From an uncultured Candidatus Saccharibacteria bacterium (lineage in GTDB: Bacteria; Patescibacteriota; Minisyncoccia; Phycocordibacterales; UBA9973), in contig CAYVZI010000004.1 in the NCBI GenBank assembly GCA_964456475.1, positions 7,604 through 71,603 of the forward strand: a stretch of 64,000 nt of DNA, given 5' to 3'. A program made the position numbers and the translations under genes. The notes beneath the pieces are model-generated. The model had not been told where the DNA came from. It saw only the letters and a list, made by a program, of their open reading frames with translations, and did no database searches. Positions 11,699-29,123 of this stretch are shown here, piece after piece. Position 1 is the stretch's first letter. The number at the start of each line of letters is the position of its first letter.

Positions 11699-12340
11699 AT
11701 GATGCCAAGCAAACGTTTTGTATACATAGCCCTCGGATTACTCATCCTTGTTTTCGGTGCCTTTTTGGTCAAACGGTATACAAAAGAGCAGACTATTCAA
11801 TCTGCACTCATTTCGGTCCAAAAAAATCTCCCTTTTCTATCATTTGACGAACCGAATGGTAATTTCGTCTCTCTACAAGACGCAGAAGCAGATACATCCA
11901 AACCAAAAAGCAAACCTACAACGAAACCAACGACGGTGCCATCCACAGAGGAGGTAATTACTTCTCCCGTTATTCACAGTCTTTCAAGAGATGTTTTTGG
12001 TAACGGAGACACAATCACAATCTATGGTGATCATTTTATGGAATCAAATGATGTCATTCTTTCGATCGATTTTAAGGACGCATTTACCGGAATTCGTTCA
12101 ACAGACGGCAAATCTATTACCTTTACGGCAAATCTGTCTCTTAGTCAGAAAGTATTTGAGGGGATTAGTCACCTCAGTCCAGAAATGAGGAAGTCAGTAT
12201 TAAAGCAAATGATTATTGATGCCTCAAAAGACTCTCCATACAAGGATGGTTGGTATATTCCTGCAACCATTAGCATCAAAACAGAGGCGGGATTGAGTAA
12301 TATAATCCCGATTACTGTAAACATTACTAAAGGAATTTGA
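11699..12340 (+). CDS. membrane-anchored hypothetical protein (N-terminal TM, Pro/Thr/Lys linker); first gene of T4SS-like block
   Basis: ORF 11627..12340 trimmed to the ATG giving MMPSKRFVYIALGLLILVFGAFLV (TM); KPKSKPTTKPTTVPSTEE linker. Confidence 0.4.
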   Translation: MMPSKRFVYIALGLLILVFGAFLVKRYTKEQTIQSALISVQKNLPFLSFDEPNGNFVSLQDAEADTSKPKSKPTTKPTTVPSTEEVITSPVIHSLSRDVFGNGDTITIYGDHFMESNDVILSIDFKDAFTGIRSTDGKSITFTANLSLSQKVFEGISHLSPEMRKSVLKQMIIDASKDSPYKDGWYIPATISIKTEAGLSNIIPITVNITKGI

Positions 12341-12822
12341 TGTATACTATCTATATGCAAGCTATGCGTATACGCGTATCAGTATTCGGAATTGTATTAC
12401 TTGGTGCATTTATTGCACCTCATTTTGCATTCGCGTTTGGGAGTAGCGCTCAATACTTTGGCGGAATGCAAACACTGATATACGACAGTAGTATGTGTAG
12501 TTGCAGCGGCACAAACGTTCACGTCATCAAAGACGAGGGTAGTCGGGGAATGCTTATGCTCTACGATAATGGTAGCGGGAAGGTTTTCAGCAACAACAAC
12601 CTCAACAATGTTGGTGGCTGGCAACTTGGATCATACACAACACAAACTACCCAATGTACGCAGACCGCGTATCCGAAATGCATTCTTATCGCGACAGCAA
12701 CCGGTGTATACAGCTCAGCACCAGGAACGGGGACTTCAATGATTGATGCGGCAAAAACACTCCTCGCTGGTGCGTTTACAAAAATTACAAAAAATCTCAC
12801 AAAACACTATGCCAATGTCTAG
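12337..12822 (+). CDS. small secreted Cys-containing protein, hypothetical
   Basis: Signal-like RIRVSVFGIVLLGAFIAPHFAFA; ATGA overlap with upstream gene (operon coupling). Confidence 0.4.
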   Translation: MMYTIYMQAMRIRVSVFGIVLLGAFIAPHFAFAFGSSAQYFGGMQTLIYDSSMCSCSGTNVHVIKDEGSRGMLMLYDNGSGKVFSNNNLNNVGGWQLGSYTTQTTQCTQTAYPKCILIATATGVYSSAPGTGTSMIDAAKTLLAGAFTKITKNLTKHYANV

Positions 12823-13711
12823 CTTTGAAAAAATAAAAAACAATCTACCAAGCAAAAAATTTGTGATGGTTATTGGAATCTGTGCCGGTCTTGTCACAAT
12901 TGTCCTTGTTGTGGGAAGCCTTTTTGGATCACATTCTATCTTTACCAAAAACAGGGGAAATCTCGTCGAAGCAGACGGTACAATCAAAGACCTCCTTACT
13001 CAAGACTCAAACGGCAATGGTATTTCTGACTGGGAAGAGTCTCTCTGGGGTGTTGACCCGAAAGGGGATGGTCCAACAAACAAAATAATTGTTGATGAAA
13101 AAAAGGCTCAAGCAAACGTTACTCCAATAGATCCGGGTATTCCTTCTACACAAACCGATACATTCAGCCAAGCACTCCTCTCTACAATCCTTGCTCTCAA
13201 CCAGTCAGGTGAGCTCAACACCGTGTCGCTTGCAAAAATAAGTGAGTCAATATCACAAGATATTGACTTGAAACGCGGAAATCCTACACCGTATAGCCTT
13301 AACGATCTGGCGACCGTTCCCTCAACCGAGAAATCTCGCGCTTCTTACAAAAAAAGTTTGGAAGATATTCTCGAACTGTATTCCGATCTTGAACTTGGGT
13401 CTGAACTAGGGATTATCTATCAGGGTACAAGCACAGGCGGTCAAGCAGCACTTGCAAAACTTGCTCCATACGCCGAAGCATATGCCGATATCAGCAAAAA
13501 AATGCTTAAACTGAAGACACCCAACGATCTCGGGGCAACTGCCCTCGATATTATCAATGCATCAAGCCTCATGAGTAACGCGATTCCAAGAATCGGAACT
13601 ATATACACTGATGCACTCTCTGGAATGACAGGGATTAGTGATTATATTGATGCGAGTGATAAGTCTGACAAAGCTGTCGAAAAAATGAACCTCTATTTCG
13701 ACATCGATTAA
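12809..13711 (+). CDS. membrane-anchored hypothetical protein
   Basis: Start at MPMSSFEKIKNNLPSKKFVMVIGICAGLVTIVLVVGSLF (TM); rest predicted extracytoplasmic. Confidence 0.4.
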   Translation: MPMSSFEKIKNNLPSKKFVMVIGICAGLVTIVLVVGSLFGSHSIFTKNRGNLVEADGTIKDLLTQDSNGNGISDWEESLWGVDPKGDGPTNKIIVDEKKAQANVTPIDPGIPSTQTDTFSQALLSTILALNQSGELNTVSLAKISESISQDIDLKRGNPTPYSLNDLATVPSTEKSRASYKKSLEDILELYSDLELGSELGIIYQGTSTGGQAALAKLAPYAEAYADISKKMLKLKTPNDLGATALDIINASSLMSNAIPRIGTIYTDALSGMTGISDYIDASDKSDKAVEKMNLYFDID

Positions 13712-13789
13712 GGTAAAAAACACCTCTGTTGCACTTTAGTAACAGAAAATCCTTTCAAAAATCAGTTCACCTAGGTATACTAGAATATA

Positions 13790-16588
13790 ATGATCAAACA
13801 AGGATTTCGTACAGTAACTATTCTCGGAACCATACTTATCATGTTTGGTTCTTTTGCAACAAACATCCAGACAGTAAGAGCACAAGGAGACCTCACCAGT
13901 CTTGTAGGTGGTGCGACAGGACCGGCACTCGGCGCTGCTATTTCATGCAACAAAGATGCAATCCATTCTGGTCTCTCAAAGTTGTTTGGCAAAAACAAAG
14001 AAAAAAGTACTGGAAAGGAAAATGCTAGCGGAACGGGATTTATCCCAGTCGGAGATGAATCTGTCAAAGCAAACACAGAAAGAGCTGCGGAAGAAGCTGC
14101 AAAGACCGCAAAAAAGCTCAACTGTACCAATGCAATCGCGAAAGCAGTCTCCCAAACAATCCTCAAAGAACTCACTGTCTCGACAATCAACTGGATCAAT
14201 AGCGGTTTTCAAGGTGGGGGACCACTCTACATCGGTGATACAGGCACTTTCCTCAAGAACATCGGTGATCAGTCAGTAAAACAATTTGCTTCGGTTATCG
14301 GATTTGACCCGATCAATTACCCCTTTGGAAAGACGTTTATTCAGGGGCTCGTCAAATCAAACAGCGCTACATTTGAGAGTGCAGCACGGTACAGTCTTAA
14401 CAACGTCATAGCTCAACAATCTCCAGGGATGACTTCAGCCAATTTTGCCGCCGATTTTAGGGTCGGGGGATGGGATGCGTTTCTCAGTCAGACAGAGTGG
14501 CAAAACAATCCTATCGGATTTAATCAGCGTGCATCGCAAACTATTGCAAGCAGAACAGCTGACACCAACTATAGTCCAGGACAAGACCTTCGAGATCAAA
14601 TCCAAAGAAATGGTGGTTTTCTTGACCTAAAACACTGTGTAAGCCCTTGGGACTACGACCCAAATTCTAATGATCCTACCAAAAACGTATGTAAACAATT
14701 CATGAACCAAACTCCGGGAAGTGTCGTTCAATCAACACTCAACAAAGCCCTAGGAAGTCCATTTGACCAGCTTGGACTCGGGCAGGACTTGTCGACCGAC
14801 CTTACAGCAATTTTCGACGCTCTCATCAATCACTTTGTTCAAAAAGGTCTCAATGCACTTTCTGAAGAAACCCAGGATGGAAATAATGGCACACCGGTTG
14901 ATTTCGATGCATTTAAAAATAATCAAGGATATGCGGATAATGAGATCAAAGGGGGTACCAGTTTTGGTTCTGGTACAAGCTTCCTCGATGCAGGTGACGC
15001 GTTCCAAACAAATATTTTTGACCTTCATTCATTGGGACGAGAAGCAAAAAGCTCCACAAAAGACGAAAATGGCGATCCTGTATATCGCGCAAACCTCGTC
15101 GGTATAATCAACCGTGAACTCCAGCTTATATCAAGCAAAGATATTGAAAGCTCTCTCACAACTTCCGATTCAAAAACTGGAACAACCGCATTCGGATGGA
15201 CGCCAACACAAGTCAACTTATGGAAAAATCTTATCCAGAGTCGTAATCCGCGATACATAGACATACTCGATAAACAAAATGAGCAAATCGAGAAGCTTAT
15301 CCCGGCAATCTACCAGCTCGACTACTGTATTCCAGGCCCACGCCCAACGTGGAAAAATGAAGTCTTTACCAATCTCGAGCGTGAGCTTGATGGCTGGCCA
15401 AAAGACTCGAGCAAAGTTGATCTCTGGCAAGCAAACTCGAAGTTCCAAAAAATCATGGACATGAGTGGTAATTTGAACAAATTTAGCCAAGCCATTAGTG
15501 ATCTAACTGCTGATGTTCGTGAAGAAAATTTCTACGGAATCATGGTGAGTGGTGCACTATCAAACAACAGCCCTGAAATAAAAAAGACACTGGGAATTGA
15601 TCGTTTGACGATTAACAATACAGTTCCTGTCGCTGTAAACGCAAAAGTAAATGGATACGACAAAGCTGTCGGCATCATCGCCGAACTCTTTAGTCGTTAT
15701 GAAAAAACGCTCACAAAAGAGTATGGTACGACAAACATTCGCAATACAGGAATGGATCAATCGATTATTACAATAAACAACACCGAGTATCCAAATATCC
15801 CTACTTACGAGAGATCAATTATAGATAACAAAGAACTCATCGAACGACAAAAGAGTACGGTCTATCAGCTCATCGCTCTCGGCAAGAAGATATATCGTCT
15901 ACAAAAAAACATCAATTTAGACCCAAAGAGTGATGGTACATTCCAAGGTTTTCCTGGGTCAAACACTTGTATCGACGAACAAGGCTCTACGGTAGAATGC
16001 CCAGACAACACCATTTCTGGATATGACTTCTATCAAAGCCAGATCAATCTCGTAAACCAGACAAGTATTAGCAAGCTTACTGAATACCAAAAAGAGCTCC
16101 GTCGTATCAATGATACGTTCAATATTCTTGCTCCTGATTTGCATTCTGATCAGGATATCAAAGAACAAGAAGCTCTCCTCGACACAATCATCGACAAGGT
16201 CGACAGTATCACTGACGACGGGGGATACCTTGATGTCTGTGTTGACCTAGTCAACGATTCCGAGACAAATGCTACAGAGGATAGTAATGGAAATAAGTTA
16301 TTTATCGCAGACGTCAATCTTATGCGATTGCCATATCCATCATCATTGAGCCCACAAATACCAGAATCTTTCAAAAGCCAGTTCAAAAAACCAGAAGGAA
16401 AGTCTTTTCTCCCTGATCATTACTACAGGAGGGGAGAAGACGCTGGAGAAGTCGCATACATGAAGAATCTGCTTGGCGCAAGATATAATCCTCTCAAAGA
16501 AATCAGAAACGACGATATTGTCACGATTGATGGTCAGCCGATTCCAAATGCACTAGCCACATTTGAACAGTTTTTGGGGATGTATTAA
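13790..16588 (+). CDS. large secreted protein (932 aa), hypothetical; possible T4SS surface/adhesin component
   Basis: N-terminal signal/TM MIKQGFRTVTILGTILIMFGSFATNIQTVRAQG; Cys-containing extracellular domain; co-directional with T4SS-like genes. Confidence 0.45.
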   Translation: MIKQGFRTVTILGTILIMFGSFATNIQTVRAQGDLTSLVGGATGPALGAAISCNKDAIHSGLSKLFGKNKEKSTGKENASGTGFIPVGDESVKANTERAAEEAAKTAKKLNCTNAIAKAVSQTILKELTVSTINWINSGFQGGGPLYIGDTGTFLKNIGDQSVKQFASVIGFDPINYPFGKTFIQGLVKSNSATFESAARYSLNNVIAQQSPGMTSANFAADFRVGGWDAFLSQTEWQNNPIGFNQRASQTIASRTADTNYSPGQDLRDQIQRNGGFLDLKHCVSPWDYDPNSNDPTKNVCKQFMNQTPGSVVQSTLNKALGSPFDQLGLGQDLSTDLTAIFDALINHFVQKGLNALSEETQDGNNGTPVDFDAFKNNQGYADNEIKGGTSFGSGTSFLDAGDAFQTNIFDLHSLGREAKSSTKDENGDPVYRANLVGIINRELQLISSKDIESSLTTSDSKTGTTAFGWTPTQVNLWKNLIQSRNPRYIDILDKQNEQIEKLIPAIYQLDYCIPGPRPTWKNEVFTNLERELDGWPKDSSKVDLWQANSKFQKIMDMSGNLNKFSQAISDLTADVREENFYGIMVSGALSNNSPEIKKTLGIDRLTINNTVPVAVNAKVNGYDKAVGIIAELFSRYEKTLTKEYGTTNIRNTGMDQSIITINNTEYPNIPTYERSIIDNKELIERQKSTVYQLIALGKKIYRLQKNINLDPKSDGTFQGFPGSNTCIDEQGSTVECPDNTISGYDFYQSQINLVNQTSISKLTEYQKELRRINDTFNILAPDLHSDQDIKEQEALLDTIIDKVDSITDDGGYLDVCVDLVNDSETNATEDSNGNKLFIADVNLMRLPYPSSLSPQIPESFKSQFKKPEGKSFLPDHYYRRGEDAGEVAYMKNLLGARYNPLKEIRNDDIVTIDGQPIPNALATFEQFLGMY

Positions 16589-16617
16589 ACCGATAGAATG
16601 ATACAATAGTATAGTAA

Positions 16618-19284
16618 ATGAAACGCATCGTTCCACTTATTTTTTCGATAGCAATTTTTGTTGGCATCGCTTTGCCTTTTTCAACAACGCTGTCACCTCA
16701 ACACGGAGTTCGCCTCACGGCGAACTCCGTGTTTGCTGCAGACACATACACTCCTGAAGCAAATGTTCATGGATATCTGGAAGATTGTGCCCTATTTAAC
16801 TGGGTTACAGGATCTGACGACGGGAGCATGGCCGGATGTATTGCTCAAATCGTCTACATTATCCCGTATCAACTTGGAGCGTGGGCCATGTCAGTAGCTG
16901 CAAAAGCATTCGACGTTGGAGCAAGTCTCACACTCTCGAGTGCCCTCTATACCAAAGGCGACCTTCTCACCAAGGGCTGGACTGTCACTCGTGACTTTGC
17001 CAACATCTTCTTCATTCTCATTCTGCTTTTTGCCGCACTCTCACTTGTACTCGACATGGATCTCGGCGGTGCCAATCCAAAAAAGATGCTAAGTTCTGTA
17101 GTGATTATTGCCATACTCATCAATTTCAGCTTCTTCCTGACAGAAGTAGTGGTAGATGTGTCCAATTCGCTTGCACTCGTTTTTTACAACCAAATCGGTA
17201 CAGTCCAAAAAGACAAAGTTACCGCCGTTGACACTACAGAAGAGGACAAGCAATTCAAAGACCACAACCTCATCAAAAAAATTCAACCAATCTCAACATC
17301 AATTGTTGCTGGATTCAAGCCTCAGATTTTCAGCAATCAGGATTTTTACAACAAACTTGCTTGTGCAAAAGAAAATGGTTTTTTCACAGACTTGAGCAGC
17401 AAAAAATGTACTCCAGCAGATGTCGCCAACAAAAAAGTCTCTTCTGGCGTTATAATTCCCGTACTAATCCTTGTGGGTTGTATGTATCTTGTGGTTGCAT
17501 ACAGTTTTGGAGTGGCACTCATTTCACTCATCGGGCGCATGATCAGCCTCTTTATCGCAATCATCTTTGCTCCATTTGCGTTTGTGTCCACAATTTTGCC
17601 TGCGACACAACACATGGCTGGATTCGGCTGGGACGAGTGGTTCTCAAATCTGATGAAAGCAGCATTTGCAGCACCAATATATTTTTTCTTGCTTCTCTTG
17701 GTGACGTTCATTGTAGATATTGATATTGTTCCAAAAAACACCACCAATATGTCTGCCGGCATCATTCTCGTTTTGGTAATGATCCAGTGTGCCATAGTCA
17801 TCACACTCCTCCTCAAAGCTACAAAAATAGTAGAAAGTGCTTCCGGAGAAATCGGCGGAATGATTTTGAAAGGCACCAAAGTCATCGCAGGTGGAGCAGC
17901 CGGACTCGTCGGTGGCGCCGCACTCGGTGGCCTTGCTCTTGCAGGGCAGGGAACTGTTGGATGGGTTGGGAAGAAAATTGCTGGAAGCGACCGTTTAAAT
18001 AGGTGGGCAATCAACGGCGGGGGAGTTAAAAATAATTTTATGAACGGTCTGCTTCAAAAAATTGGAAGAACTGGACTTGAAAGCGGTCAAAAACTGAGCA
18101 AGTCGAGTTTTGACGCTCGACACACAGGATTGGGAAATGCATTTACATCAGCAACAGGTATTAACCTTGGTAGTTTTGGTGCTCTCGCGGCAAAAAATAC
18201 GACTGGCGGCCTTGAGGGTGCTGCAGCACGCAAAGCAGCAAAAGATGAGGCATTTGCTGCAACATTAAAAAACGATGAGAAAAAGACCGAGAACCTTGAG
18301 GCTGAACTAAAGACTAAAAATAAAGAATTGGAAAGTGAAGAGAAAAAGAAGAGACTCTTGGAAAAAGAAAAGGAGATTCTTGATTTGGAAACAAAAAATC
18401 TTGAGTCCGAAAGACGTGAGGCTAGAGAAAAGATGAAAGACAATCAAGGCAATCAATCCTCTCTCGATTACATTAATGCAGAGAAAAAATTTAAAGATGC
18501 AGATGCAAAACTTAATGGTGGAAAGACAGCAAATGGAACAGTCATCGATCCTACAGATGCAAAAAGAACTCAACTTGCAGAAAAAGTGAAAGATATTAAT
18601 AAACAAAAAGAAAAAATACTTGAGATTGAAAAAGGCAAGAGGGACGCAAATGGTGATAAAATCAAAGCAGCAGATGGAGATACCCTTGCCGGTGGCAAGG
18701 TGGCAGATGCATTAGATGTAAAAAATGAGGCTATAGCAAAAGAAAGTTTGGGTATAAAAGACTACGAAAAAATAATAGAGGACAGTAAAAAAGGTGCTTC
18801 GAGAGCATTTCTCGCATACGAAGCGGAGCGTTCTGGATATCACACTAAAATCAAAACGGATAATTCAGGTACTGTTATCGGTCATCATGTTGACACTAAT
18901 CAGGCAGGCAAACGAAACGACTTCCGTACGTTCACTCGAATTGCTGGGGCATTTGCACTTGGTGGATTGACTGGTAATATCGCCAATCTTGCTACAACCC
19001 TCAGTTCTTTTAGTGGCGCTGTTAGTGCTTTTAGTGGCCAAGCAGCATTCGGTTTTGGGCTTGCTTCTACAATCAAAGAGGCACTCGGTGATTTTCAGGG
19101 ACGCAGTTTTGTAGCTGGTGAAGCAGGCCATCATACAGCAAATCCAGGCGGTAAACACGAACATGAACATGGCGTCTACCATACTCCAAACGCAGGATTC
19201 CTTGCTGAACTCGCTTCAATATTCAAATTCAAAGCAGGAGGAGGGGGTGGAGGCAGTGGCGGAGGAGGGGGTGGACATCATTAA
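16618..19284 (+). CDS. polytopic membrane protein, VirB6/TrbL-like candidate, with C-terminal coiled-coil and Gly-rich/His tail
   Basis: Signal peptide, at least 6 predicted TM helices in two clusters, coiled-coil EAELKTKNKELESEEKKKRLLEKEKEILDLETKNLESERREAREK, tail GGGGGGSGGGGGGHH. Assignment by architecture only. Confidence 0.45.
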   Translation: MKRIVPLIFSIAIFVGIALPFSTTLSPQHGVRLTANSVFAADTYTPEANVHGYLEDCALFNWVTGSDDGSMAGCIAQIVYIIPYQLGAWAMSVAAKAFDVGASLTLSSALYTKGDLLTKGWTVTRDFANIFFILILLFAALSLVLDMDLGGANPKKMLSSVVIIAILINFSFFLTEVVVDVSNSLALVFYNQIGTVQKDKVTAVDTTEEDKQFKDHNLIKKIQPISTSIVAGFKPQIFSNQDFYNKLACAKENGFFTDLSSKKCTPADVANKKVSSGVIIPVLILVGCMYLVVAYSFGVALISLIGRMISLFIAIIFAPFAFVSTILPATQHMAGFGWDEWFSNLMKAAFAAPIYFFLLLLVTFIVDIDIVPKNTTNMSAGIILVLVMIQCAIVITLLLKATKIVESASGEIGGMILKGTKVIAGGAAGLVGGAALGGLALAGQGTVGWVGKKIAGSDRLNRWAINGGGVKNNFMNGLLQKIGRTGLESGQKLSKSSFDARHTGLGNAFTSATGINLGSFGALAAKNTTGGLEGAAARKAAKDEAFAATLKNDEKKTENLEAELKTKNKELESEEKKKRLLEKEKEILDLETKNLESERREAREKMKDNQGNQSSLDYINAEKKFKDADAKLNGGKTANGTVIDPTDAKRTQLAEKVKDINKQKEKILEIEKGKRDANGDKIKAADGDTLAGGKVADALDVKNEAIAKESLGIKDYEKIIEDSKKGASRAFLAYEAERSGYHTKIKTDNSGTVIGHHVDTNQAGKRNDFRTFTRIAGAFALGGLTGNIANLATTLSSFSGAVSAFSGQAAFGFGLASTIKEALGDFQGRSFVAGEAGHHTANPGGKHEHEHGVYHTPNAGFLAELASIFKFKAGGGGGGSGGGGGGHH

Positions 19285-19322
19285 TTAAACTCTAAAAACT
19301 AAACTCGAAAATCAATACTGTA

Positions 19323-19356: not shown

Positions 19357-19374
19357 GTATCTTATACTATATAT

Positions 19375-20265
19375 ATGGCGGACGAAGTAAAAAAAATAAA
19401 TGTGGTTTCTTCTTCGACAGCTCAGGCTTCTGAGGCTGTAACAAAAGCGACTATCGACGAGCAATTTTCTGGAGTAAAGCAGGAACTATTTGCGCGTTTT
19501 GAACTTCTTCCTGATGACATCAAAAAAGCGATTACCGATGACGCCTACCAGCAAAAACTTTTTACAATTGCGAAAGAACAGAAGATGACATACGAAGAAC
19601 TTGGCATGATGGAGACAGAGACTACGATGGTACTTCTTGGAATGACCAAACCAGAAGATTTTCGCGATGAACTCCAACTTGAACTCAAGAAAAATGACGC
19701 TGAAATAGATTTGCTTGTAGGAAAAATCAACGAGCAAGTCTTTGCTCCGATCCGTGCCTCACTTGAGCGAGTATACGCTGCAAAAAAAGAACCTATCGAC
19801 TATTTGCAGAAGCCACCTGAGCAAGAGAATATTAAATCACAAGAACAGAATACATTCACCTCACCCCAGCCCTCTCCTAAATTAGGAGAGGGGGTAGTCC
19901 AAACTCAGCCAGTTGCCGTAGCACCAAATACCACTCCTCGAGTTATTCCTCCTACGACACATACTCCAGCAACAATCCAATCTGCATTTGCAAAATCTGG
20001 CGTGGTTCTCACCGAAACTCCAAAACCTGTTGCACCTATTCAAACCTCACAAATGCCAAATCGTAGCGATATTCTCAAGGGAATCGAAAATCCTCCTAAG
20101 ATACCTTCACTTGGAATGGTAGCCGACAAGCTCAATAGTACTGGTGTAATCATGCCAACAAAAACCACCGATTATTCCGTTCTTAAATCGACACCTCCAG
20201 CAAATCTCCCGACCACGCCAGCATCTCCAGCAAAAAACGATCCGTATCGAGAACCAATTGGGTAA
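19375..20265 (+). CDS. Pro/Thr-rich hypothetical protein
   Basis: 296-aa ORF, low-complexity P/T-rich C-terminal half, no TM. Confidence 0.4.
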   Translation: MADEVKKINVVSSSTAQASEAVTKATIDEQFSGVKQELFARFELLPDDIKKAITDDAYQQKLFTIAKEQKMTYEELGMMETETTMVLLGMTKPEDFRDELQLELKKNDAEIDLLVGKINEQVFAPIRASLERVYAAKKEPIDYLQKPPEQENIKSQEQNTFTSPQPSPKLGEGVVQTQPVAVAPNTTPRVIPPTTHTPATIQSAFAKSGVVLTETPKPVAPIQTSQMPNRSDILKGIENPPKIPSLGMVADKLNSTGVIMPTKTTDYSVLKSTPPANLPTTPASPAKNDPYREPIG

Positions 20266-20304
20266 CAAGCTTTTAAGCTTTCTAGCTGTTTAGCTTTTAA
20301 GGAA

Positions 20305-20670: not shown

Positions 20671-20704
20671 AAGCTCAAAAAGCTATAAAGCTATAAAGCT
20701 TCCT

Positions 20705-21109: not shown

Positions 21110-21118
21110 ACCGCTTTT

Positions 21119-21473
21119 GTCATACCGGACCCCGATCCGGTATCCATTCGCATGAATCATAATTCATACTATGTATATATACTTGCAAACAAAAAACGAG
21201 GCACGCTATACATAGGTGTAACAAATAATTTAAAACGTAGAATATACGAGCATAAAAACAAGCTTGCTGATGGATTCACAAAAATCCACAAAGTGAACAA
21301 CTTTGTACATTACGAAGAAACCAACGATGTTCGTTCAGCAATTACTCGAGAAAAACAATTAAAAAATTGGCAAAGAATTTGGAAGATAGATTTAATTGAG
21401 TCAACGAACCCTGAGTGGAAAGACTTGGAGTTATAAACGGCCCGCATGGATCCCGGATCGGAGTCCGGGATGA
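21119..21473. mobile_element. mini cassette: GIY-YIG nuclease gene bounded by 26-bp palindromic inverted repeats (gtcatMccggacYYSgatccggKatcc)
   Basis: Left copy 21119-21145 and right copy 21448-21473 are reverse complements (1-2 mismatches); a third solo copy lies at 56305-56330. Confidence 0.5.
21152..21436 (+). CDS. GIY-YIG nuclease family protein (small, UPF0213-like)
   Basis: YYVYILANKKRGTLYIGVTNNLKRRIYEH is a GIY-YIG core; 94 aa. Confidence 0.8.
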   Translation: MNHNSYYVYILANKKRGTLYIGVTNNLKRRIYEHKNKLADGFTKIHKVNNFVHYEETNDVRSAITREKQLKNWQRIWKIDLIESTNPEWKDLEL

Positions 21474-21572
21474 CAACATAGGGCAAAGTCCAGGATGACC
21501 ATTTTTATTTTTATATCATTCATTCCACTAAATTCACGTAATATTATCTGCTTCTAGTGCTATAATAATTTC

Positions 21573-22232
21573 ATGGCATTAAGTGCACAAGCAACTCAAG
21601 AATTTGTTCCCATCAAAGAGGTCCGAGAGGGGACTATTGTTTTGAAGGATGGTGGACTTCGAGCAATCGTAGCGGTATCTTCCGTAAACCTAGCCCTCAA
21701 ATCGAACGATGAACAAATTGCCACAATCAACCAGTTTCAATCGTTCCTCAACTCTGTTGATTTTCCTATTCAGATTGTTGTTCAGTCGCGCAGGCTCGAC
21801 ATTAGACCCTACCTCCTCATGCTTGAAGGCAAAATGAAAGACCAGCATGAACCACTCCTTAAACTCCAAACCGCAGGATACATAAGCTTCATCCGTGAAT
21901 TTACCGAGCAAGTTGCAATCATGCGTAAATATTTTTATGTAGTAATCCCATACGATGAAGCGATACTCTCCACAAAGAAAGGTTTCCTTGGGGGATTACT
22001 TGGAAACAACAAAACCAGCGGATCTCAAACAAAAGATGAGATTGCCGCATTTGAAGAAAAAAGAACTCAGCTCGACGAACGAGTAAACGTTATTTCTTCT
22101 GGACTTGGTTCATGTGGAGCACGTACAGAAAGACTACAAACAGAAGAGGTAATCGAATTATTTTATAAGACTTTCAACCCGGGAGATATTCAGCCCGTTA
22201 TTTCGCTTGGGGATATGCCCCAAGCGAAATAA
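21573..22232 (+). CDS. hypothetical soluble protein; possibly the detached N-terminal domain of a long Gram-positive-type VirB4
   Basis: 219 aa, no TM. The pattern REGTIVLKDGGLRAIVAVSSVNLALKSNDEQIATINQFQSFLNSVDFPIQIVVQS resembles, from memory, VirB4 N-terminal regions. Its stop codon sits inside a perfect 22-bp palindrome. Confidence 0.4.
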   Translation: MALSAQATQEFVPIKEVREGTIVLKDGGLRAIVAVSSVNLALKSNDEQIATINQFQSFLNSVDFPIQIVVQSRRLDIRPYLLMLEGKMKDQHEPLLKLQTAGYISFIREFTEQVAIMRKYFYVVIPYDEAILSTKKGFLGGLLGNNKTSGSQTKDEIAAFEEKRTQLDERVNVISSGLGSCGARTERLQTEEVIELFYKTFNPGDIQPVISLGDMPQAK

Positions 22233-22246
22233 CGGGCTGTTAATTA
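22199..22246. terminator. perfect 22-bp stem hairpin (cagcccgttatttcgcttgggg-atat-ccccaagcgaaataacgggctg) overlapping the stop of the 21573 ORF
   Basis: Read directly; no T-run follows, so function may be RNA processing rather than termination. Confidence 0.45.
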
Positions 22247-22301
22247 GGAATTACGAATTAAGAATTAGGAGTGCCGCCCAAACGCAATTTAATGCATAGC
22301 G

Positions 22302-22658
22302 ATGAAAGAAAACAATATAATACAACAGAAAAGCTATGCCTTTGCCTTAAAAATTATTGTTATATATCAACATCTAACAAGGGAACAAAAAGAATTCATT
22401 CTTTCAAAACAACTGATCCGATCTGGAACTTCTGTTGGTGCAAATGTGGAAGAGGCGATTGGAGCTCAATCAAAAAATGACTTTACTGCAAAAATGAGCA
22501 TTGCCTACAAAGAAGCTCGCGAAACCCTCTATTGGATTCGATTACTCACTGACGGTAAGTTCCTACAAGACCCTCAATCTGTTACACTATTAAAAGACTG
22601 CGACGAACTCTTGCGAATACTTGGTTCTATAATTGCGAGCAGTAAAATTCGTAAGTAA
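22302..22658 (+). CDS. four-helix-bundle protein (TIGR02436-like, Avd-related)
   Basis: LIRSGTSVGANVEEAIGAQSKNDFTAKMSIAYKEARETLYWIRLL family motifs; flanked by inverted repeats aattaggaatta (22233-22270) / taattcctaatt (22660-22712). Confidence 0.8.
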   Translation: MKENNIIQQKSYAFALKIIVIYQHLTREQKEFILSKQLIRSGTSVGANVEEAIGAQSKNDFTAKMSIAYKEARETLYWIRLLTDGKFLQDPQSVTLLKDCDELLRILGSIIASSKIRK

Positions 22659-22712
22659 TACTGTTTTCTCATTTTTAATTCCTAATTCCTAATTTTTAAT
22701 TTACTCTCATCT

Positions 22713-24551
22713 ATGGCACTCTTTGGATTATTCAACAAAAAAAAGGAGAATGGTGACAATTCTCGCATTCAGGCAAACGCCATGCCTATTTTTCCTGAGC
22801 AAATATATGAGGCGGCCTCACTCGAACTCAAAGACATCATTGCTCCCTCTGCACTCAAAATCGAACCTAAGTCTCTCAATCTCGGCGACAAAATTGCTCG
22901 CACCTATTTCGTCATTTCATATCCATCGATTCTCACTGACAACTGGCTCTCTCCAATCATCAACCTCGACAAAGTATTCGATATATCAATCACCATTCAC
23001 CCTGTCGAAACTGCTCAGATTCTTCGCACCTTCCAAAAGAAAGTAGCCGAAGTCCAGAGTCAGATAATGACCCGCGAAGCAAAGGGGATGGTGCGCGACC
23101 CAATGCTCGACATGGCAAACCGAAACCTGGAAGAACTTCGAGACCGTCTGACTCAAGCACAAGAAAAGATGTTTGATGTGGGACTCTACCTTACGATCTA
23201 CGCCGACAATGAGACCGAGCTCTTCAAAATCGAGAACGAAATCAAATCAATTCTCGAGGCGAAGCTCATCTACTTCAAGCCAGCCCTCTTCCAGCAAGAT
23301 GACGGATTCAAGAGCGTTATTCCGCTCGAAGACGACCATCTTCAAATCTATCAGAAACTCAACTCGGAACCGCTTTCGAGCTTCTTCCCGTTTGTATCAT
23401 TCGACCTCACCTCAGACAAAGGAATCCTCTACGGGGTGAATCGTCACAATTCCTCACTCATCATCTTCGACCGATTCAGTCTCGACAACTACAACTCAAT
23501 CATCTTCGCCACCTCTGGTGCCGGAAAATCATACGCGACAAAACTCGAAGTGATTCGCTGTCTCATGTTTGATACCGAAGTCATCGTAATCGACCCAGAA
23601 CGTGAATATGAACGCCTCGCAGAAGCTCTCGGTGGACGCTATTTCAATATCTCACTCAACTCTGGCTCACACATCAACCCATTCGACCTTCCACTTCCTG
23701 GTGAAGGGGAGACTGGAGCAGATATATTGCGCGGAAACGTGATCAATCTCGTTGGTCTTTTCCGCATCATGCTTGGAGGACTCTCTCCAGAAGAAGATGC
23801 GCTTGTTGATCGTGCAATTATGGAAACGTACGCCATCAAAGACATCACACCGGATTCTGATTTTTCACAAATTGAACCACCACTTCTTTCCGACTTCGAA
23901 ATGGTGCTTACCGGTATGGAGGGGACAGAATCAATCGTTTCCCGCCTTTCAAAATTCACTCACGGTTCATGGGCAGGATTCATCAACCAACCTTCAAACG
24001 TAGACATCAACAAAAAATTTGTAGTCTTCTCCGTGCGCGACATGGAAGACGACCTTAAGCCAGCAGCAATGTATATCGTGACCCACTTCATTTGGAACGA
24101 GGTTCGCAAAAACATCAAAAAACGTCTTTTGGTCGTGGATGAGGCATGGTGGATGATGAAATCAGACGATACGGCATCGTTCCTCTTCTCGATTGCCAAG
24201 CGTGGACGCAAATACTTCTTGGGACTCGCTACAATCACACAAGATGTGGGCGACTTCATGAAGAGTCCGTACGGAGTGCCAATCGTTACCAACTCATCAC
24301 TCCAACTCCTCCTGAAACAATCACCATCGACAGTAGATGTGCTTCAAAAGACGTTCAACCTCACTGATGAAGAAAAATATCTCTTGCTCGAGTGTAACAA
24401 GGGGGAGGGGATCTTCTTTGCCGGACTCAAACACGTGGCAATCAAGATTATTTCTTCATACACTGAAGACCAGCTCATCACGAGCGATCCTTCACAAATT
24501 CTCGCCCTCCAAAAATCTCGTACAGCTCTCACCGAGGCAGTAAAAAGCTAG
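22713..24551 (+). CDS. virB4: VirB4-family ATPase of a Gram-positive-type T4SS (TraE/PrgJ-like)
   Basis: N-terminal LKDIIAPSALKIEPKSLNLGDKIARTYFVISYP (VirB4-family signature), Walker A ATSGAGKSYATK, Walker B LLVVDEAWWMM, 612 aa. Confidence 0.85.
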   Translation: MALFGLFNKKKENGDNSRIQANAMPIFPEQIYEAASLELKDIIAPSALKIEPKSLNLGDKIARTYFVISYPSILTDNWLSPIINLDKVFDISITIHPVETAQILRTFQKKVAEVQSQIMTREAKGMVRDPMLDMANRNLEELRDRLTQAQEKMFDVGLYLTIYADNETELFKIENEIKSILEAKLIYFKPALFQQDDGFKSVIPLEDDHLQIYQKLNSEPLSSFFPFVSFDLTSDKGILYGVNRHNSSLIIFDRFSLDNYNSIIFATSGAGKSYATKLEVIRCLMFDTEVIVIDPEREYERLAEALGGRYFNISLNSGSHINPFDLPLPGEGETGADILRGNVINLVGLFRIMLGGLSPEEDALVDRAIMETYAIKDITPDSDFSQIEPPLLSDFEMVLTGMEGTESIVSRLSKFTHGSWAGFINQPSNVDINKKFVVFSVRDMEDDLKPAAMYIVTHFIWNEVRKNIKKRLLVVDEAWWMMKSDDTASFLFSIAKRGRKYFLGLATITQDVGDFMKSPYGVPIVTNSSLQLLLKQSPSTVDVLQKTFNLTDEEKYLLLECNKGEGIFFAGLKHVAIKIISSYTEDQLITSDPSQILALQKSRTALTEAVKS

Positions 24552-24595
24552 GGCTCCCTCTCCTTATTGAGAAGTATACATTCGTATTTCAGTTC

Positions 24596-25606
24596 ATGCT
24601 GTTATATAATAACTGTATGTTTCGCAAAGGATTACTACTGATTGTCTCTATCATATTTTTTTCGCTTCCATTCTCTGGAACTCTTTTTGCGCAGACTGCG
24701 GGGCAAATTTCTGTTGATATAATTCCTCAAAATCCAGGTCCGGATGAGACTGTTACCATCTATTTAAAAAGCTACTCTTTCAATATAAATACAGCATATA
24801 TTGAATGGTCTGCGGATGGCATTATGCAAAAAGGCGGAGTAGGAGTTACCTCATTCAAAGTTACAACAAAAAAACTGGGGGACACCACACAAGTCGCAGC
24901 AAAAATCACGCCAACAGGGTCAATTCCAATTATAAAAAATATCTCCATCACTCCAATGTCAGTAGATATACTCTGGCAAGCTACGGATTCGATCGTTCCA
25001 CCATTCTATAAAGGCAAGGCGATGCCTACATCAGAATCAAAAATCAAACTTGTGGCTCTTCCTCAAATCGTATCGGTATCAGGAAACCGCGTAGCACCTG
25101 AGGTTCTTGTATACAACTGGAAAGAAGAATATCAAAACAAACAAGCGAGTTCTGGATATGGAAAAAATTTTTTCTTTACAGAAATGGATTATTTGAATAC
25201 TCAAAAAAATGTCTCTGTTGATGTCTCTTCTCGAGATGGAGGTATTGCTACTAGAGGTTTTGTTGATGTTTCTTCAGTAGACCCAGAATTACGTCTGTAC
25301 GCTTCGAGCCCACTCTACGGACCGCTTACCGATACAGAACTCACTGATTCATTCACTGTATCGACTAGCGATATATCAATCGTTGCAATGCCATACTTCT
25401 TTTCACCAGGTAATCCATCCTCGTCACTTCTTGAATACAAGTGGCAATTGAATGGTTCACCAATTGGCACACCTGCCATTCCAAACGCGCTCTTTCTCCA
25501 TCGTGAATCAAATTCGACAGGGAACGCCACGCTTGAACTTGTCGTCACAAACATTACCAAGCTGTTCCAGTCCGGAACCGCACGTTTGAACCTAACCCTT
25601 CAATAG
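24596..25606 (+). CDS. secreted hypothetical protein
   Basis: Signal peptide LLLIVSIIFFSLPFSGTLFAQTA; 336 aa. Confidence 0.45.
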   Translation: MLLYNNCMFRKGLLLIVSIIFFSLPFSGTLFAQTAGQISVDIIPQNPGPDETVTIYLKSYSFNINTAYIEWSADGIMQKGGVGVTSFKVTTKKLGDTTQVAAKITPTGSIPIIKNISITPMSVDILWQATDSIVPPFYKGKAMPTSESKIKLVALPQIVSVSGNRVAPEVLVYNWKEEYQNKQASSGYGKNFFFTEMDYLNTQKNVSVDVSSRDGGIATRGFVDVSSVDPELRLYASSPLYGPLTDTELTDSFTVSTSDISIVAMPYFFSPGNPSSSLLEYKWQLNGSPIGTPAIPNALFLHRESNSTGNATLELVVTNITKLFQSGTARLNLTLQ

Positions 25607-25607
25607 T

Positions 25608-27395
25608 ATGAAGAAAAAAATATTTTCCTCGCTAGTGTGTGCACTATTGTTTTTTACAGGAGCATCTTTAGCAAAAGCTGAACTAACAGATATCAAAGGT
25701 GTTGTATCAGATCCAAAAATTACAATTTCAAGAATTGACGGGCAAATTATAGCAACCATTACAGGAACGCTCGATAGCAAAGGTGTCAAACTATACAACG
25801 ATACAAATGTATTAAGACCAATATACGCCCTTTATCAAAAACGTGATGTCAATACAAAAAACAGTGCTTGGAGTGACCGGGATGAGGCTGTTAGAGATCC
25901 AATAAGATGCAATCTTGACCCAGATACGCCACCAGAAGAAATTGGTGGATTGTCTTTTATTTGTACTGTTCCGAACTTAACCTATGGAACATACGTTTTT
26001 GACGTTGGTATTCTGTTTTCTTCTTTTAGCGATAGCTACAGTGTGCTAAATAATAATTTTATTATTGAAAACGTCACTGATGTTCCTTACAAGAGCGGTG
26101 TTGATGCGTCTGTTTCTATTACCCCAAACACCGACAGCTCGGTCAGTGTTACTGGATATTTAAATACCCCAGCCAAAGAAAGTTCAAAGGCTCTGAACAT
26201 AATCTATGGTGAAGTTTTTACATTTGACATACCGAACCAAAAAAGAACTCAAATCAAGGGTTATCAAGCTGACGTTTTGACAAAAGAGCCTGTGGTTGTT
26301 CATAAATCAGAAAATCCTCCTTCGTATAATGCAATTTTTACACCACCAGGTCCTGGAACTTATGTTTTGGCTGTTGTTGATAGCTCGGGTGCGCTTCTGA
26401 GCTCGTATAAGCAATTTACAGTTGTTGGAACGGGTATAAACCCAGATTCAGACAATGGTATCGGTCCAAATGCACTTGGCTGTGTCAACGAGAAAGACAA
26501 CAAGAGTTACTGTCTCCTCGCCCCACTGCCTGGAGTAGGGGACACTACGGGCAAGCTCGATGTAAGCACCGGAATTGGAAATTATTTCAACATGATTATC
26601 AAACTCGTCATGGGTATCATTGGTGTACTTGCCGTACTTATGGTGGTTGTGGGAGGTATTGAATACATGTCTACCGTCAACCTTGGCGAAAAGGAAGGTG
26701 CTCGCGCCCGAATTACCAGCGCTATTCTCGGTCTTCTCCTAGCTCTTGGTGCATTTCTCATCCTAAAAACAATCAATCCCGACCTCGTGAATGTAAATAT
26801 TGGAGTGCCAAAGGGGGTCATTGTGGAAGGAGACCCCGGAGATGATATTGACGAATCTGATGCGAAGATAGCAAACAGTGGTGCGATAACTCCCGGCGTG
26901 GTTGTCCCGACTGGAACAGCTCAGGAACTAGCAAAACAAATTCTCAATAGTTCAAAAATTACCTTGGCAACAGAATCTTGGAATGGCGGACCATCCGCAA
27001 CAGCAAGACAAAATATTTTAGACACAATCAACGGTCAAGGTGCGGTAACGAGTACAAGGGGATCAAAAGGTGGTGCTCGCGTGCCTCTCCAAACAAGTGT
27101 ACTTGCTGGAGCAATTGCTGTCTCAAACGTAACCCCGATTCAAATAAATGCATTTGTAAACGGAAGACATGATTCTTCGTTGTCTCGGCATTACATTGGA
27201 GCGGCGATGGACATTCAATCTGCGCCATCAGAGATACAGCGCACAAAGACAATTCTCGGTGCTTGTAAAGCAGCAGGAGCGACTGAATTTTTGGGACCAT
27301 GCAACAACAACCTTTCAAAAAAAATATGTGACGCAACCGGCTTTCCCACAAACAGTGGGCATCAAACTCACATACACTGTGGTTGGCCACGTTAA
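25608..27395 (+). CDS. T4SS-associated envelope protein: N-terminal secreted domain, internal VirB2/TrbC-like two-helix membrane hairpin, C-terminal M15 (LAS) metallopeptidase domain
   Basis: Signal peptide; VirB2-like MIIKLVMGIIGVLAVLMVVVGGIEYMSTVNLGEKEGARARITSAILGLLLALGAFLIL; M15 zinc motifs SRHYIGAAMD (SxHxxGxAxD) and HIH (HxH) near the C-terminus. Confidence 0.5.
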   Translation: MKKKIFSSLVCALLFFTGASLAKAELTDIKGVVSDPKITISRIDGQIIATITGTLDSKGVKLYNDTNVLRPIYALYQKRDVNTKNSAWSDRDEAVRDPIRCNLDPDTPPEEIGGLSFICTVPNLTYGTYVFDVGILFSSFSDSYSVLNNNFIIENVTDVPYKSGVDASVSITPNTDSSVSVTGYLNTPAKESSKALNIIYGEVFTFDIPNQKRTQIKGYQADVLTKEPVVVHKSENPPSYNAIFTPPGPGTYVLAVVDSSGALLSSYKQFTVVGTGINPDSDNGIGPNALGCVNEKDNKSYCLLAPLPGVGDTTGKLDVSTGIGNYFNMIIKLVMGIIGVLAVLMVVVGGIEYMSTVNLGEKEGARARITSAILGLLLALGAFLILKTINPDLVNVNIGVPKGVIVEGDPGDDIDESDAKIANSGAITPGVVVPTGTAQELAKQILNSSKITLATESWNGGPSATARQNILDTINGQGAVTSTRGSKGGARVPLQTSVLAGAIAVSNVTPIQINAFVNGRHDSSLSRHYIGAAMDIQSAPSEIQRTKTILGACKAAGATEFLGPCNNNLSKKICDATGFPTNSGHQTHIHCGWPR

Positions 27396-27452
27396 AAAAC
27401 AGAAATCCCAGACTTTCAACTTTGAGCTTTCTCCTTTATACTTAGCCTATAG

Positions 27453-29123
27453 ATGTCCCGCGGAAAACTTCTCATCATCATTGCAGTCGTAATACTCGTC
27501 ATTGGCGGGTGGATGTTTTTGTCTTCCAAAAAATCTAATACTGTAGATTCTGACGGTACCCAAAAAAGTCTTTTGAGTACATTGTTTCCTTTTGGAAAGA
27601 ACTCTACAATCGACAATCCAACGCAGAACACTGATGGAGGGGATAACGGCAACAGCGACCAATCATCAACTCCAAATGCTCAAAAATACTTAACCCAAAT
27701 AACAAGCATCGCAACAGCAGGATACACAACCCTTCCAACTGACACCAGGCCAATAGTACAACACGACGTGTCTGGTGAAGTAAGCACTGAGGTAATTCAA
27801 ACGATATTACCAGGCGTACGCTTTGCAGAACGTGGCACTGGATACTTATACGATACCGATGTAAAAGGTCAGAACCTAAAAAAGGTTTCGGGGACAATTA
27901 TTGCAAGAACAGCAGAAGCACTTTTTGCCGACAACGGAGCGACTGCTATTTTGCGATACATAAAGACTGACAACACAACGATTGCAACATTTTTGGGTAA
28001 ATATACTCCGTCAAAAAACACACTAGAGGCTGGGTCACTTACTGGGGCATTTCTTCCCGAAAAGATTTCGACTATTCTCGTTTCTGCAGACCAAAAGAGC
28101 CTCTTGTATCTACTTCCTACTCCAAATGGCTCAGCTGCAATATCAATCAAAACAGACGGAACCGGCAGAAAACAACTCTGGAGTAGTGCCTTTAGCGAAT
28201 GGATTCTCGACTGGGCAAACAAATCTATTCTCGCAACAACCAAAGCAAGTGGTTCCGTCCCAGGATACGCCTATACCATCGATACGGCTGGCACCTTTCA
28301 AAAAATAATCGGGGGTGTCGATGGACTCACAACAAAATCGAGTCCTAATGGAAAATATATTCTGTATAGTGTCTCAGGTGGTGATGGTTTGAGTCTTCGT
28401 ATTCATCGCACAAGCGAAGGAACGTCAATAAACACAGGACTACAAACCCTTCCCGAAAAATGTGTCTGGGGAACAGAGTCTTCGTATTTCTACTGTGCTG
28501 CTGGACAAACAATCCCAAAAGGGGAGTATCCTGATGATTGGTACAAAGGGGCTGTCCATTTTAATGACAGCTTCTGGAAAGTGCAGGCTGAAAACGGTAC
28601 AACCGAACAAGTAAATGATGGTGAAGGAAACTATCTTGATGCTACCAATCTGTCATTCGATCAAACAGGAAAATATCTTGTGTTCATCAACAAAAAAGAT
28701 ACTTCTCTCTGGTCTCTGGATACCAACCCAAACAAAGTACAGTCTAACACTTCAAAAAACGCTCCTAGTTTTAATACAACTAAAAACGAAATTGTGATAA
28801 ATGGAGATACGACTGAAACCAATAACTGTGGAAGTATTGGTTGTTTTCAAGAGAATTTCAAGTCTTGTACTCCAGCAAATAATACAGCCGATATGTCACC
28901 ATTAGGAACTTTTTCCTCTACTATAATAGGAAAAGTGACGGGAGGTTGCAGTGTTAAATTTGTGTATACCAAAAACATCAATCCTACATGGGTAAATCAA
29001 CCAATGACCTGCACCTTGGATAACACAAAGGATTTTGAGGCCGTAGAAAAAAAGGTTTTGAGCGATACAGTACAGGGGACAAGCAATTGTACTGGCCCCT
29101 TGGCTTCGCTTCTTAGACAATAG
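27453..29123 (+). CDS. membrane-anchored beta-propeller-like protein (TolB-like repeats), hypothetical
   Basis: N-terminal TM LLIIIAVVILVIGGWMFL; repeated SPNGKYILYS / DQTGKYLVFI motifs. Confidence 0.45.
   Translation: MSRGKLLIIIAVVILVIGGWMFLSSKKSNTVDSDGTQKSLLSTLFPFGKNSTIDNPTQNTDGGDNGNSDQSSTPNAQKYLTQITSIATAGYTTLPTDTRPIVQHDVSGEVSTEVIQTILPGVRFAERGTGYLYDTDVKGQNLKKVSGTIIARTAEALFADNGATAILRYIKTDNTTIATFLGKYTPSKNTLEAGSLTGAFLPEKISTILVSADQKSLLYLLPTPNGSAAISIKTDGTGRKQLWSSAFSEWILDWANKSILATTKASGSVPGYAYTIDTAGTFQKIIGGVDGLTTKSSPNGKYILYSVSGGDGLSLRIHRTSEGTSINTGLQTLPEKCVWGTESSYFYCAAGQTIPKGEYPDDWYKGAVHFNDSFWKVQAENGTTEQVNDGEGNYLDATNLSFDQTGKYLVFINKKDTSLWSLDTNPNKVQSNTSKNAPSFNTTKNEIVINGDTTETNNCGSIGCFQENFKSCTPANNTADMSPLGTFSSTIIGKVTGGCSVKFVYTKNINPTWVNQPMTCTLDNTKDFEAVEKKVLSDTVQGTSNCTGPLASLLRQ

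Follow-up and report, generated by a model that had tools for sequence, protein, structure and literature searches.

How might a bacterium from the candidate phyla radiation (CPR) use a type IV secretion system (T4SS) lying beside its chromosomal origin with neither a coupling protein nor a relaxase gene close at hand? The question is raised by 64,000 nucleotides from an uncultured Candidatus Saccharibacteria bacterium (contig CAYVZI010000004.1, positions 7,604 to 71,603, GenBank assembly GCA_964456475.1), hereafter the window, in which positions 11,699–29,123 (11.7–29.1 kb) hold an unbroken run of open reading frames (ORFs) on the + strand, with short or overlapping junctions. A preliminary description, made from the letters alone, had read this block as a VirB4-centred CPR machine of Gram-positive type, for DNA uptake or for host-surface interaction; every ORF that it named was found where it had been placed, on that strand. 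We consider it probable that the block encodes a non-conjugative T4SS for contact-dependent host-cell interaction, descended from monoderm MPF-FATA machinery whose DNA-processing module has been lost. As a system it is not new, being a textbook example of the published non-conjugative, origin-adjacent T4SS of CPR bacteria, and the only points that a specialist might not expect are a modular pilin–hydrolase fusion and a set of cassette insertions.

The VirB4 ATPase, a protein of 612 aa, is encoded at 22713..24551 (+). It scored 377.6 bits against the NCBIfam model conju_CD1110 (cut-off 325; model positions 181–733 of 752) and 88 bits against Pfam P-loop_TraG, with additional matches to AAA_10 and DUF87, in agreement with its earlier identification. 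Both the Walker A (SGAGKS) and the Walker B (LLVVDEAW) motifs are intact, its closest plasmid relatives are CD1110 proteins from Firmicutes and Actinobacteria, and its sequence places it in the monoderm CD1110/MPF-FATA lineage. The protein has no N-terminal domain, and VirB4 models match it only from about position 181–290 onwards. Complementary model coverage (1–180, as against 181–733) comes from a TrsD-like protein of 219 aa at 21573..22232 (+), which the preliminary description had left out of its parts list and which is the detached VirB4 N-domain: in NCBIfam it matched VirB4_plasma at model positions 102–232 (E 5.8e-11), VirB4_CagE at positions 4–150 and TrsD (E 7.2e-8; 32.5 bits, far under the curated cut-off of 200), and the precomputed Pfam record for the exact protein holds PF26593 (TraC-like). 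Comparison of its family with that of the window VirB4 by hhalign gave no match, and the two are complementary parts rather than paralogs; searches of the Protein Data Bank (PDB) with phmmer and with the family profile were likewise empty, and BLASTP against plasmid VirB4 gave a colinear alignment that was not significant. Given the complementary coverage and the existence of a single 783-aa plasmid homolog, the VirB4 ATPase is encoded in two pieces, of 219 and 612 aa. TrsD has also been recorded in the literature as a separate piece beside VirB4 (Quinonero-Coronel et al. 2025, Microb Genom, PMC12102498). The small membrane protein at 20705..21109 (+), described earlier as PrgI-like, passed the Pfam gathering score for PrgI (32 bits vs 27) and is the PrgI/VirB3-like component.

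The large polytopic membrane protein at 16618..19284 (+) has about seven hydrophobic segments, with an N-terminal helical membrane domain of ~470 aa and a long, Gly-rich C-terminal extension that contains coiled coil and His/Gly stretches. Neither the protein nor 44 of its relatives matched the VirB6 or TrbL models of Pfam, NCBIfam was also empty for the window protein, and a profile search of the PDB returned low-complexity coiled-coil matches only. A homolog of its membrane domain (P0141, E 3.5e-18) did score 26.5 bits with Pfam TrbL, which clears that model's gathering score of 25.9, and three further homologs matched TrbL below it. The AlphaFold2 (AF2) model (predicted local distance difference test, pLDDT, 75; predicted TM-score, pTM, 0.71) is an all-helical bundle, for which the top-probability Foldseek match was R388 TrwI/VirB6 (8rt9_F, probability 0.94, with a weak E of ~0.1 and TM-scores of 0.26–0.38). 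The polytopic architecture agrees with the earlier label of VirB6-like, and the link to TrbL runs by way of P0141, the window protein itself having given no direct VirB6/TrbL match; the identity is probable, not proven.

The pilin-like component is a fusion protein of 595 aa at 25608..27395 (+). It consists of a signal peptide, a variable extracellular N-domain of ~300 aa, a membrane hairpin at residues ~300–391 and a C-terminal peptidase domain at ~430–595. Residues 319–388 matched Pfam T4SS_pilin at 22.9 bits (gathering score 26.6), and the hairpin matched the NCBIfam pilin-like model Mbov_0395 at 24 bits (E 2.3e-5; cut-off 40). Among the 69 syntenic orthologs, T4SS_pilin was found in 60 (best E 9e-10) and TrbC/VirB2 in 20, and conservation is confined to residues ~280–420. 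As to the C-terminal domain, the motifs SRHYIGAAMD (residue 526) and HIH (residue 588, within HTHIH) correspond, in the proper order, to the zinc-ligand patterns H-x6-D and H-x-H of LAS peptidases and are invariant in the four closest homologs. An exhaustive search with residues 420–595 retrieved 268 homologs, of which the 149 best keep S-x-H-x2-G-x-A-x-D in 123 cases, and a profile built from 131 of the homologs matched 1LBU with an E of 3.3e-11 (catalytic stretch, i-E 3.6e-6), in an alignment that spans the SNSRH..D and GPG..H.THV zinc-ligand motifs. 1LBU is the zinc D-Ala-D-Ala carboxypeptidase of Streptomyces albus G (MEROPS M15A, LAS superfamily), which shares both S-x-H-x2-G-x-A-x-D and G-P-G..H-x-T-H-V with the family; unlike 1LBU, the window domain sits behind a membrane hairpin and has no PG_binding_1 domain. 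The same profile also matched the N-domains of Sonic hedgehog (E ~3e-4), individual family members matched Peptidase_M15_3 (11), M15_4 (4), Extensin-like_C (5) and Peptidase_U40 (3), and hhalign against VanY-type relatives aligned the motif weakly (E 0.013). The domain is therefore best described as a predicted, divergent zinc peptidase of the LAS superfamily (M15-like), and on that basis the fusion of a VirB2-like hairpin to a cell-wall peptidase, as first described, stands.

What surrounds the hairpin differs from one species to the next. More than 100 aa follow the hairpin in 64 of the 69 orthologs and more than 100 aa precede it in 43, and by all-against-all BLAST the C-terminal extensions fell into 21 unrelated clusters (66 proteins) and the N-terminal ones into 34 (53 proteins). 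Many of them were assigned by Pfam to domains that act on peptidoglycan, namely NlpC/P60 (13), VanY (9), YkuD (5), Amidase_5 (5), Peptidase_M15_4 (3), SLT (3) and CHAP (2), as well as Amidase_2 and 3D, and many others are of unknown type. A conserved hairpin with interchangeable ends is thus what occupies this syntenic position. Given its signal peptide at the N-terminus and its pair of transmembrane (TM) helices, the protein should have both ends extracytoplasmic. The 2025 survey handles VirB1 and VirB2 homologs separately, and no hairpin–hydrolase fusion was found in the searched text (PMC12102498). Recurrence of the fusion suggests a seat of host specificity or of wall breaching, and with it a handle on the host range of uncultivated CPR bacteria. 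A more specific idea, which we put forward only tentatively and regard as doubtful, is that the attached enzyme may be directed at the host instead of serving the cell itself as a VirB1 substitute, in other words that it may act as a 'drill bit' matched to the host's peptidoglycan or surface; this would fit a core that is conserved (VirB4 ~77% identical) while the domains attached to the hairpin are replaced wholesale. If the idea were true, the fused domain would be a readable host-range marker in uncultivated Paceibacteria.

All proteins of the window were compared by tblastn with 80 related loci at the species level (GTDB species), and since the fetched flanks differ in reach, the denominators vary from gene to gene. 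Nearly all of the 80 loci are labelled Paceibacteria, Nomurabacteria or unclassified Patescibacteria metagenome-assembled genomes (MAGs), with a VirB4 that is 72–88% identical to that of the window (median 77%). There are thousands of VirB4 homologs in general; the best of them are 78–93% identical, the named ones come from Nomurabacteria or Paceibacterota, and the exact window sequence was present in two short Logan contigs only. The organism itself belongs with the CPR bacteria of Paceibacteria/Nomurabacteria type. Ten genes keep their order and strand across these 80 species of Paceibacteria. Homologs were found in 80 relatives for both VirB4 (22713) and the TrsD-like protein (21573, 59% identity), in 76 for PrgI (20705, 44% identity) and in 65 for the VirB6-like protein (16618), with 69 of 73 for the pilin-like fusion (25608), 67 of 68 for a TolB-like protein (27453), 77 of 77 for a secreted protein directly 3' of virB4 (24596), 44 of 53 for a large secreted protein (13790), 36 of the ~48 loci that reach that far for a membrane-anchored protein (12743) and 31 of 67 for a soluble protein (19375). 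By these counts 13790, 24596 and 27453 are conserved, lineage-specific components, as had been suggested.

The surroundings of the block are equally constant. On its 5' side lie uvrD and ksgA, with ksgA between uvrD and the block (Pfam), and on its 3' side a convergent jag(R3H)-yidC-yidD-rnpA group is followed by dnaA and dnaN; the order jag...dnaA...dnaN is also seen downstream in related loci. The cumulative GC skew has its minimum at ~26–30 kb, and this, together with the housekeeping flanks, shows that the cluster adjoins the chromosomal origin. GC content is 0.39–0.44 in the block as in the remainder of the window, without a compositional break. As for the boundaries of a mobile element, no integrase and no foreign composition were found, and the flanks are the same in the 80 species. 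As the same gene order and housekeeping flanks recur in all of these species, the block is a vertically inherited chromosomal operon and not an integrative and conjugative element (ICE). We also observed that, should the origin lie at dnaA as the cumulative GC skew suggests, the + strand run of 1443–29123, T4SS included, would be transcribed towards it and meet the replication fork head-on, an orientation that is kept in relatives and is odd for an operon proposed to gain from origin-proximal gene dosage.

Genes for DNA processing and transfer were sought with Pfam in nearly all ORFs of at least 100 aa within the window. No type IV coupling protein (T4CP), relaxase or integrase was found there, the large unannotated ORFs of the window contain no Walker A motif, and comEC, comF and dprA are absent from it too; no relaxase, oriT or VirD4/TcpA-type coupling protein accompanies the machine in the 64 kb, as had been noted at the outset. 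How much this says about the genome depends on where such genes usually are: 5,713 VirD4-like genes have been counted in 2,918 Patescibacteria genomes, most of which carry them elsewhere and mostly far from virB4, while relaxases were found in just 103 Patescibacteria genomes (PMC12102498). Since VirD4-like genes are mostly distal, the 64-kb window alone is insufficient to conclude that a coupling protein is lacking.

The gene content agrees with what has been published for related organisms. The survey of 2,474 virB4 genes set apart a VirB4 clade of the Patescibacteria that is akin to MPF-FATA, recorded TrsD, PrgI, VirB6 and VirB2-like genes near virB4 with relaxases being scarce, and located the T4SS of Paceibacteria near dnaA, dnaN, rnpA and ksgA (PMC12102498). 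With the Paceibacteria systems of that survey the window has in common an MPF-FATA-related VirB4, TrsD-like and PrgI/VirB3 genes directly 5' of it, VirB6- and VirB2-like genes close by, a virB4 neighbourhood free of relaxase and T4CP, and the same location. We see no essential difference; the fusion, the TolB-like part and the cassettes were not found in the searched text of the survey. As a system the locus accordingly adds little beyond a clean and complete Paceibacteria example, although its ten-gene list of conserved parts, including the split VirB4 and the TolB-like protein, can inform structural studies of a monoderm T4SS with a possible pilus.

Two further systems help to place it. In Southlakia epibionticum ML1 (Saccharimonadia) the T4SS, encoded by SEML1_0006-0019, is essential for epibiotic growth as measured by transposon sequencing (Tn-seq; Wang et al. 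2023, Cell, PMC10633639). It resembles the window system in having Gram-positive-like subunits, pilin-like subunits within the cluster and no recognisable coupling protein or relaxase, and protein export or an alternative role has been proposed for it (PMC10633639). It differs in that S. epibionticum has an array of about six small VirB2-like pilins that are proteins of their own, with the peptidase and the lysozyme encoded by distinct genes after virB4, whereas the window has one pilin-like hairpin that is fused to the peptidase; and its essentiality is a measured one. On the conjugative side, the CD1110/CD1115-type modules of Firmicutes plasmids and ICEs have a VirB4 that is 28–37% identical to that of the window. 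One of them, on Clostridium perfringens pSXP-169_2, resembles the window in that PrgI is followed by a VirB4 of the CD1110 family and this by a cell-wall hydrolase. Unlike the window, it has genes for MobC, for a relaxase and for the VirD4-like protein CD1115 immediately 5', within 5 kb of virB4; its VirB4 is a single protein of 783 aa, in which the match to the window starts ~204 aa in, as against the 219 + 612 aa of the window; and its hydrolase is a separate SLT-domain protein, with no pilin-like gene. The CD1110 lineage, the dnaA-adjacent position and the synteny across 80 species together bear out the earlier view of a Gram-positive-type CPR VirB4 machine that is not a conjugative element.

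Put together, the parts suggest how such a machine may work. The VirB6-like channel, PrgI/VirB3 and the two-piece VirB4 would form a translocon in the cytoplasmic membrane, energised by the TrsD-like N-domain protein and the 612-aa motor. The two membrane helices of the VirB2-like protein would join the channel or a short pilus, or sit on it as decoration, and both of its ends would lie outside the cell and carry accessory domains, in this case a zinc peptidase of D,D-/L,D-type that would cut peptidoglycan cross-links. The TolB-like propeller, the 336-aa and 932-aa secreted proteins and the anchor with the calcium motif would make up the extracellular portion, in place of the outer-membrane core that is missing. 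Exchange with the host cell would then proceed by protein export and/or by breaching of the cell wall and attachment, not by conjugation of a plasmid or ICE, from an operon inherited like a housekeeping one. The sequences show the identities of the components, their synteny and chromosomal context, the lack of transfer genes in the 64 kb and the modular exchange of the domains fused to the pilin; assembly, substrate, direction of transport, function and the placing of the fused domains outside the cell are what we infer.

Several points weigh against this reading. For the function of Paceibacteria T4SS we extrapolate from a single species of Saccharibacteria, the only group in which essentiality for epibiotic growth has been shown, and the locus of that species is different; and a VirD4-like gene may be present elsewhere in this genome. 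At the level of the components, the VirB6 label depends on a transitive match and a Foldseek E of 0.1, the pilin match of the window protein lies under both curated cut-offs, and the C-domain alone gave no Pfam match (E<=5) and no PDB match by phmmer. A word-indexed search with the peptidase domain yielded three relatives, from which an AF2 model with a pLDDT of 63 was obtained, and Foldseek of this model against the PDB returned histidine kinases and no LAS fold; the histidine kinase matches reflect a hairpin-plus-alpha/beta architecture, and BFVD was uninformative.

Three other uses of the machine have to be set against contact-dependent host interaction. It could be a competence machine comparable to Helicobacter ComB or archaeal Ced, bringing DNA inwards for nucleotide scavenging or recombination, for which speak the lack of T4CP and relaxase in the window, the position of uvrD two genes 5' of the block, ruvABC in the window and the comF/recG/radA genes that lie beside the T4SS in the class ABY1 (PMC12102498). 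VirB4 also matched CedB (31.5 bits, E 7e-8; cut-off 700) and CedD (16 bits; cut-off 600) in NCBIfam, yet the CedB score is tiny next to 377 bits for the conjugative CD1110 family, and comEC, comF and dprA are not among the window genes. Moreover, competence in S. epibionticum needs type IV pili (T4P) and ComEC. Deletion of comEC abolishes competence there yet leaves viable cells, and since the T4SS is essential, the essential role of that T4SS is not DNA import (2025 review, PMC12857230, summarising PMC10633639). Of the two roles offered by the preliminary description we therefore consider DNA uptake, which the viable comEC deletion weakens, to be unlikely, and retain the one at the host surface.

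Conjugation or chromosome transfer of a conventional kind, with T4CP and relaxase genes that lie beyond the window and whose products act in trans, draws on the distal VirD4-like genes that are common in Patescibacteria and on the conjugative nature of the closest non-CPR relatives. It is at odds with a fixed dnaA-adjacent position between housekeeping flanks in 80 species, with the lack of an integrase and of a compositional break, with the scarcity of relaxases, and with S. epibionticum, where the distal t4cp is non-essential and the T4SS genes are essential (PMC12102498), and we rate it as highly improbable. The block could also be mainly an organelle of adhesion, in which a VirB2-like filament binds the host and locally digests its wall with no translocation at all. 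Potential pilus formation has indeed been singled out as an unusual trait of these systems (PMC12857230), and a conserved hairpin set against hypervariable flanking domains (21 C-terminal and 34 N-terminal types) would suit such a filament. The window has one pilin-like gene only and no VirB5-like tip protein, however, and adhesion is already served by type IV pili in related organisms, a PilB-like ATPase being encoded here at 42523..44217. Known VirB2 pilins are ~70–120 aa long, and here a 595-aa protein with appendages of 300 and 200 aa would have to polymerise. We give this possibility very little weight. Two simpler readings were ruled out: an ICE, by the fixed synteny and housekeeping flanks, and a decayed remnant, by the fact that all ORFs are intact and VirB4 is 72–93% conserved.

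The remaining proteins of the block are mostly exported. At 27453..29123 (+) a TM segment at residues 6–24 precedes a region at ~90–440 with several PD40-like repeats, for which the 12 best PDB matches of the family profile were all TolB (E 0.002–0.03), and the C-terminal ~120 aa are Cys-rich and lineage-specific; the protein is predicted to be a membrane-anchored TolB-like beta-propeller. It had been listed, along with 13790 and 24596, as having no homolog recognisable by eye. The protein of 932 aa at 13790..16588 (+) is secreted, with homologs whose conservation profile shows an N-terminal domain (residues ~80–360) with invariant C283 and C301 and a variable C-terminal two thirds. The one at 24596..25606 (+), of 336 aa, has a signal peptide and is beta-rich by eye. 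The protein at 19375..20265 (+, 296 aa) is soluble, with no TM segment; its N-terminal part is conserved and helical, its linker is rich in Pro, and the DPYRE motif at its C-terminus is nearly invariant. At 12743..13711 (+), with a start that is probably near 12809, a TM segment (residues 40–58) anchors a protein with a nearly invariant, calcium-binding-like motif (D-x-D-G-D-G..DWEE) that is followed by a helical region. For the families of 12743, 13790, 19375 and 24596, no match was found in Pfam, NCBIfam or the PDB beyond coiled-coil noise (13790).

The block is co-directional throughout, as first described, yet not all of it belongs to the machine. The membrane-anchored protein at 11699..12340 (+) has one hydrophobic segment and a weak IPT/TIG match (Pfam TIG, 19.8 bits, under the gathering score), and the small Cys-rich protein at 12337..12822 (+) has an N-terminal hydrophobic segment and no family match. 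A homolog of the former was seen in one related locus and of the latter in none, in fetched flanks that end short of both. Because the spacing from ksgA to the homolog of 12743 is ~700 nt in relatives, which leaves no room for them there, the two genes are variable extras outside the conserved core.

Nor are the three small genes at 20305, 21152 and 22302 T4SS parts. Each is flanked by inverted repeats within an intergenic spacer: cassette 1 (20256..20712, +) carries a PF05635 gene (23S_rRNA_IVP, four-helix-bundle; 20305..20670, Pfam 127 bits) between 36-nt arms (20256–20291 and 20677–20712), and its gene is present in 10 of ~70 relatives; cassette 2 (21117..21476, +) carries a GIY-YIG gene (21152..21436, Pfam 60 bits; in 2 of ~72 relatives) between 34-nt arms that are 88% complementary (21117–21150 and 21443–21476); and cassette 3 (22242..22694, +), which sits between the two halves of the split VirB4, carries another PF05635 gene (22302..22658, Pfam 94 bits; in 4 of 80) between 27-nt arms that are 89% complementary (22242–22268 and 22668–22694). 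The closest relative (L003) has empty sites for cassettes 2 and 3. A fourth cassette, with the third PF05635 gene, lies at 39952–40368 between ruvC and ruvB. All four have imperfect repeats of 27–36 nt, 75–89% complementary, in the spacers of conserved operons, and the arms of the PF05635 cassettes consist of 7–8 nt tandem units. The 80 loci contain 18 such genes, and 10 of these have flanking inverted repeats; among 597 small ORFs taken as controls the share was 0.5%. These four small genes look like mobile single-gene cassettes of an intervening-sequence (IVS)-like kind. The PF05635 and GIY-YIG cassettes resemble rRNA intervening sequences and may represent a small mobile element that is general to these genomes. 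Cassette 3 has at its left edge a perfect hairpin, 22193..22237 (+; 20-bp stem, 12 G-C pairs), which extends across the stop codon of the gene for the TrsD-like protein, so that the final ~11 codons are recoded. Similarity to L003 stops exactly where this palindrome starts. The hairpin may be a terminator, the scar of an insertion or a site of RNA processing.

Outside the block, several other features of the window were recorded. Upstream, 1443–8743 is taken up by three large ORFs of 646, 676 and 1096 aa on the same strand, 5' of uvrD, whose products are hydrophilic and rich in coiled coil, with a strong AT skew of 0.25–0.31 (A over T), almost no hydrophobic segments, no Pfam match and no Walker A motif. 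Between dnaA and dnaN, a 187-aa ORF at 33182–33745 joins a DnaA C-terminal helix-turn-helix to an HNH endonuclease domain; it is present in none of the 54 related loci that cover the position and was otherwise seen only on a near-identical Logan contig, and a possible explanation is an insertion of homing type at the origin. The PilB-type T2SSE ATPase (42523..44217, − strand, 381 bits) lies within 42523–48316 beside a Gly/Asn-rich secreted protein of 375 aa and a Ser/Thr-rich repeat protein of 897 aa with a C-terminal membrane anchor, and the group probably encodes a type IV pilus or surface adhesins, the other machinery with which CPR bacteria contact their hosts. Lastly, a diversity-generating retroelement spans 58620–61222, with a reverse transcriptase at 60092..61222 (RVT_1, 79 bits), a variable repeat (59195–59297) at the 3' end of the ORF 58620..59315 and a template repeat at 59615–59717; the two repeats are 83% identical, and all mismatches fall at template adenines.

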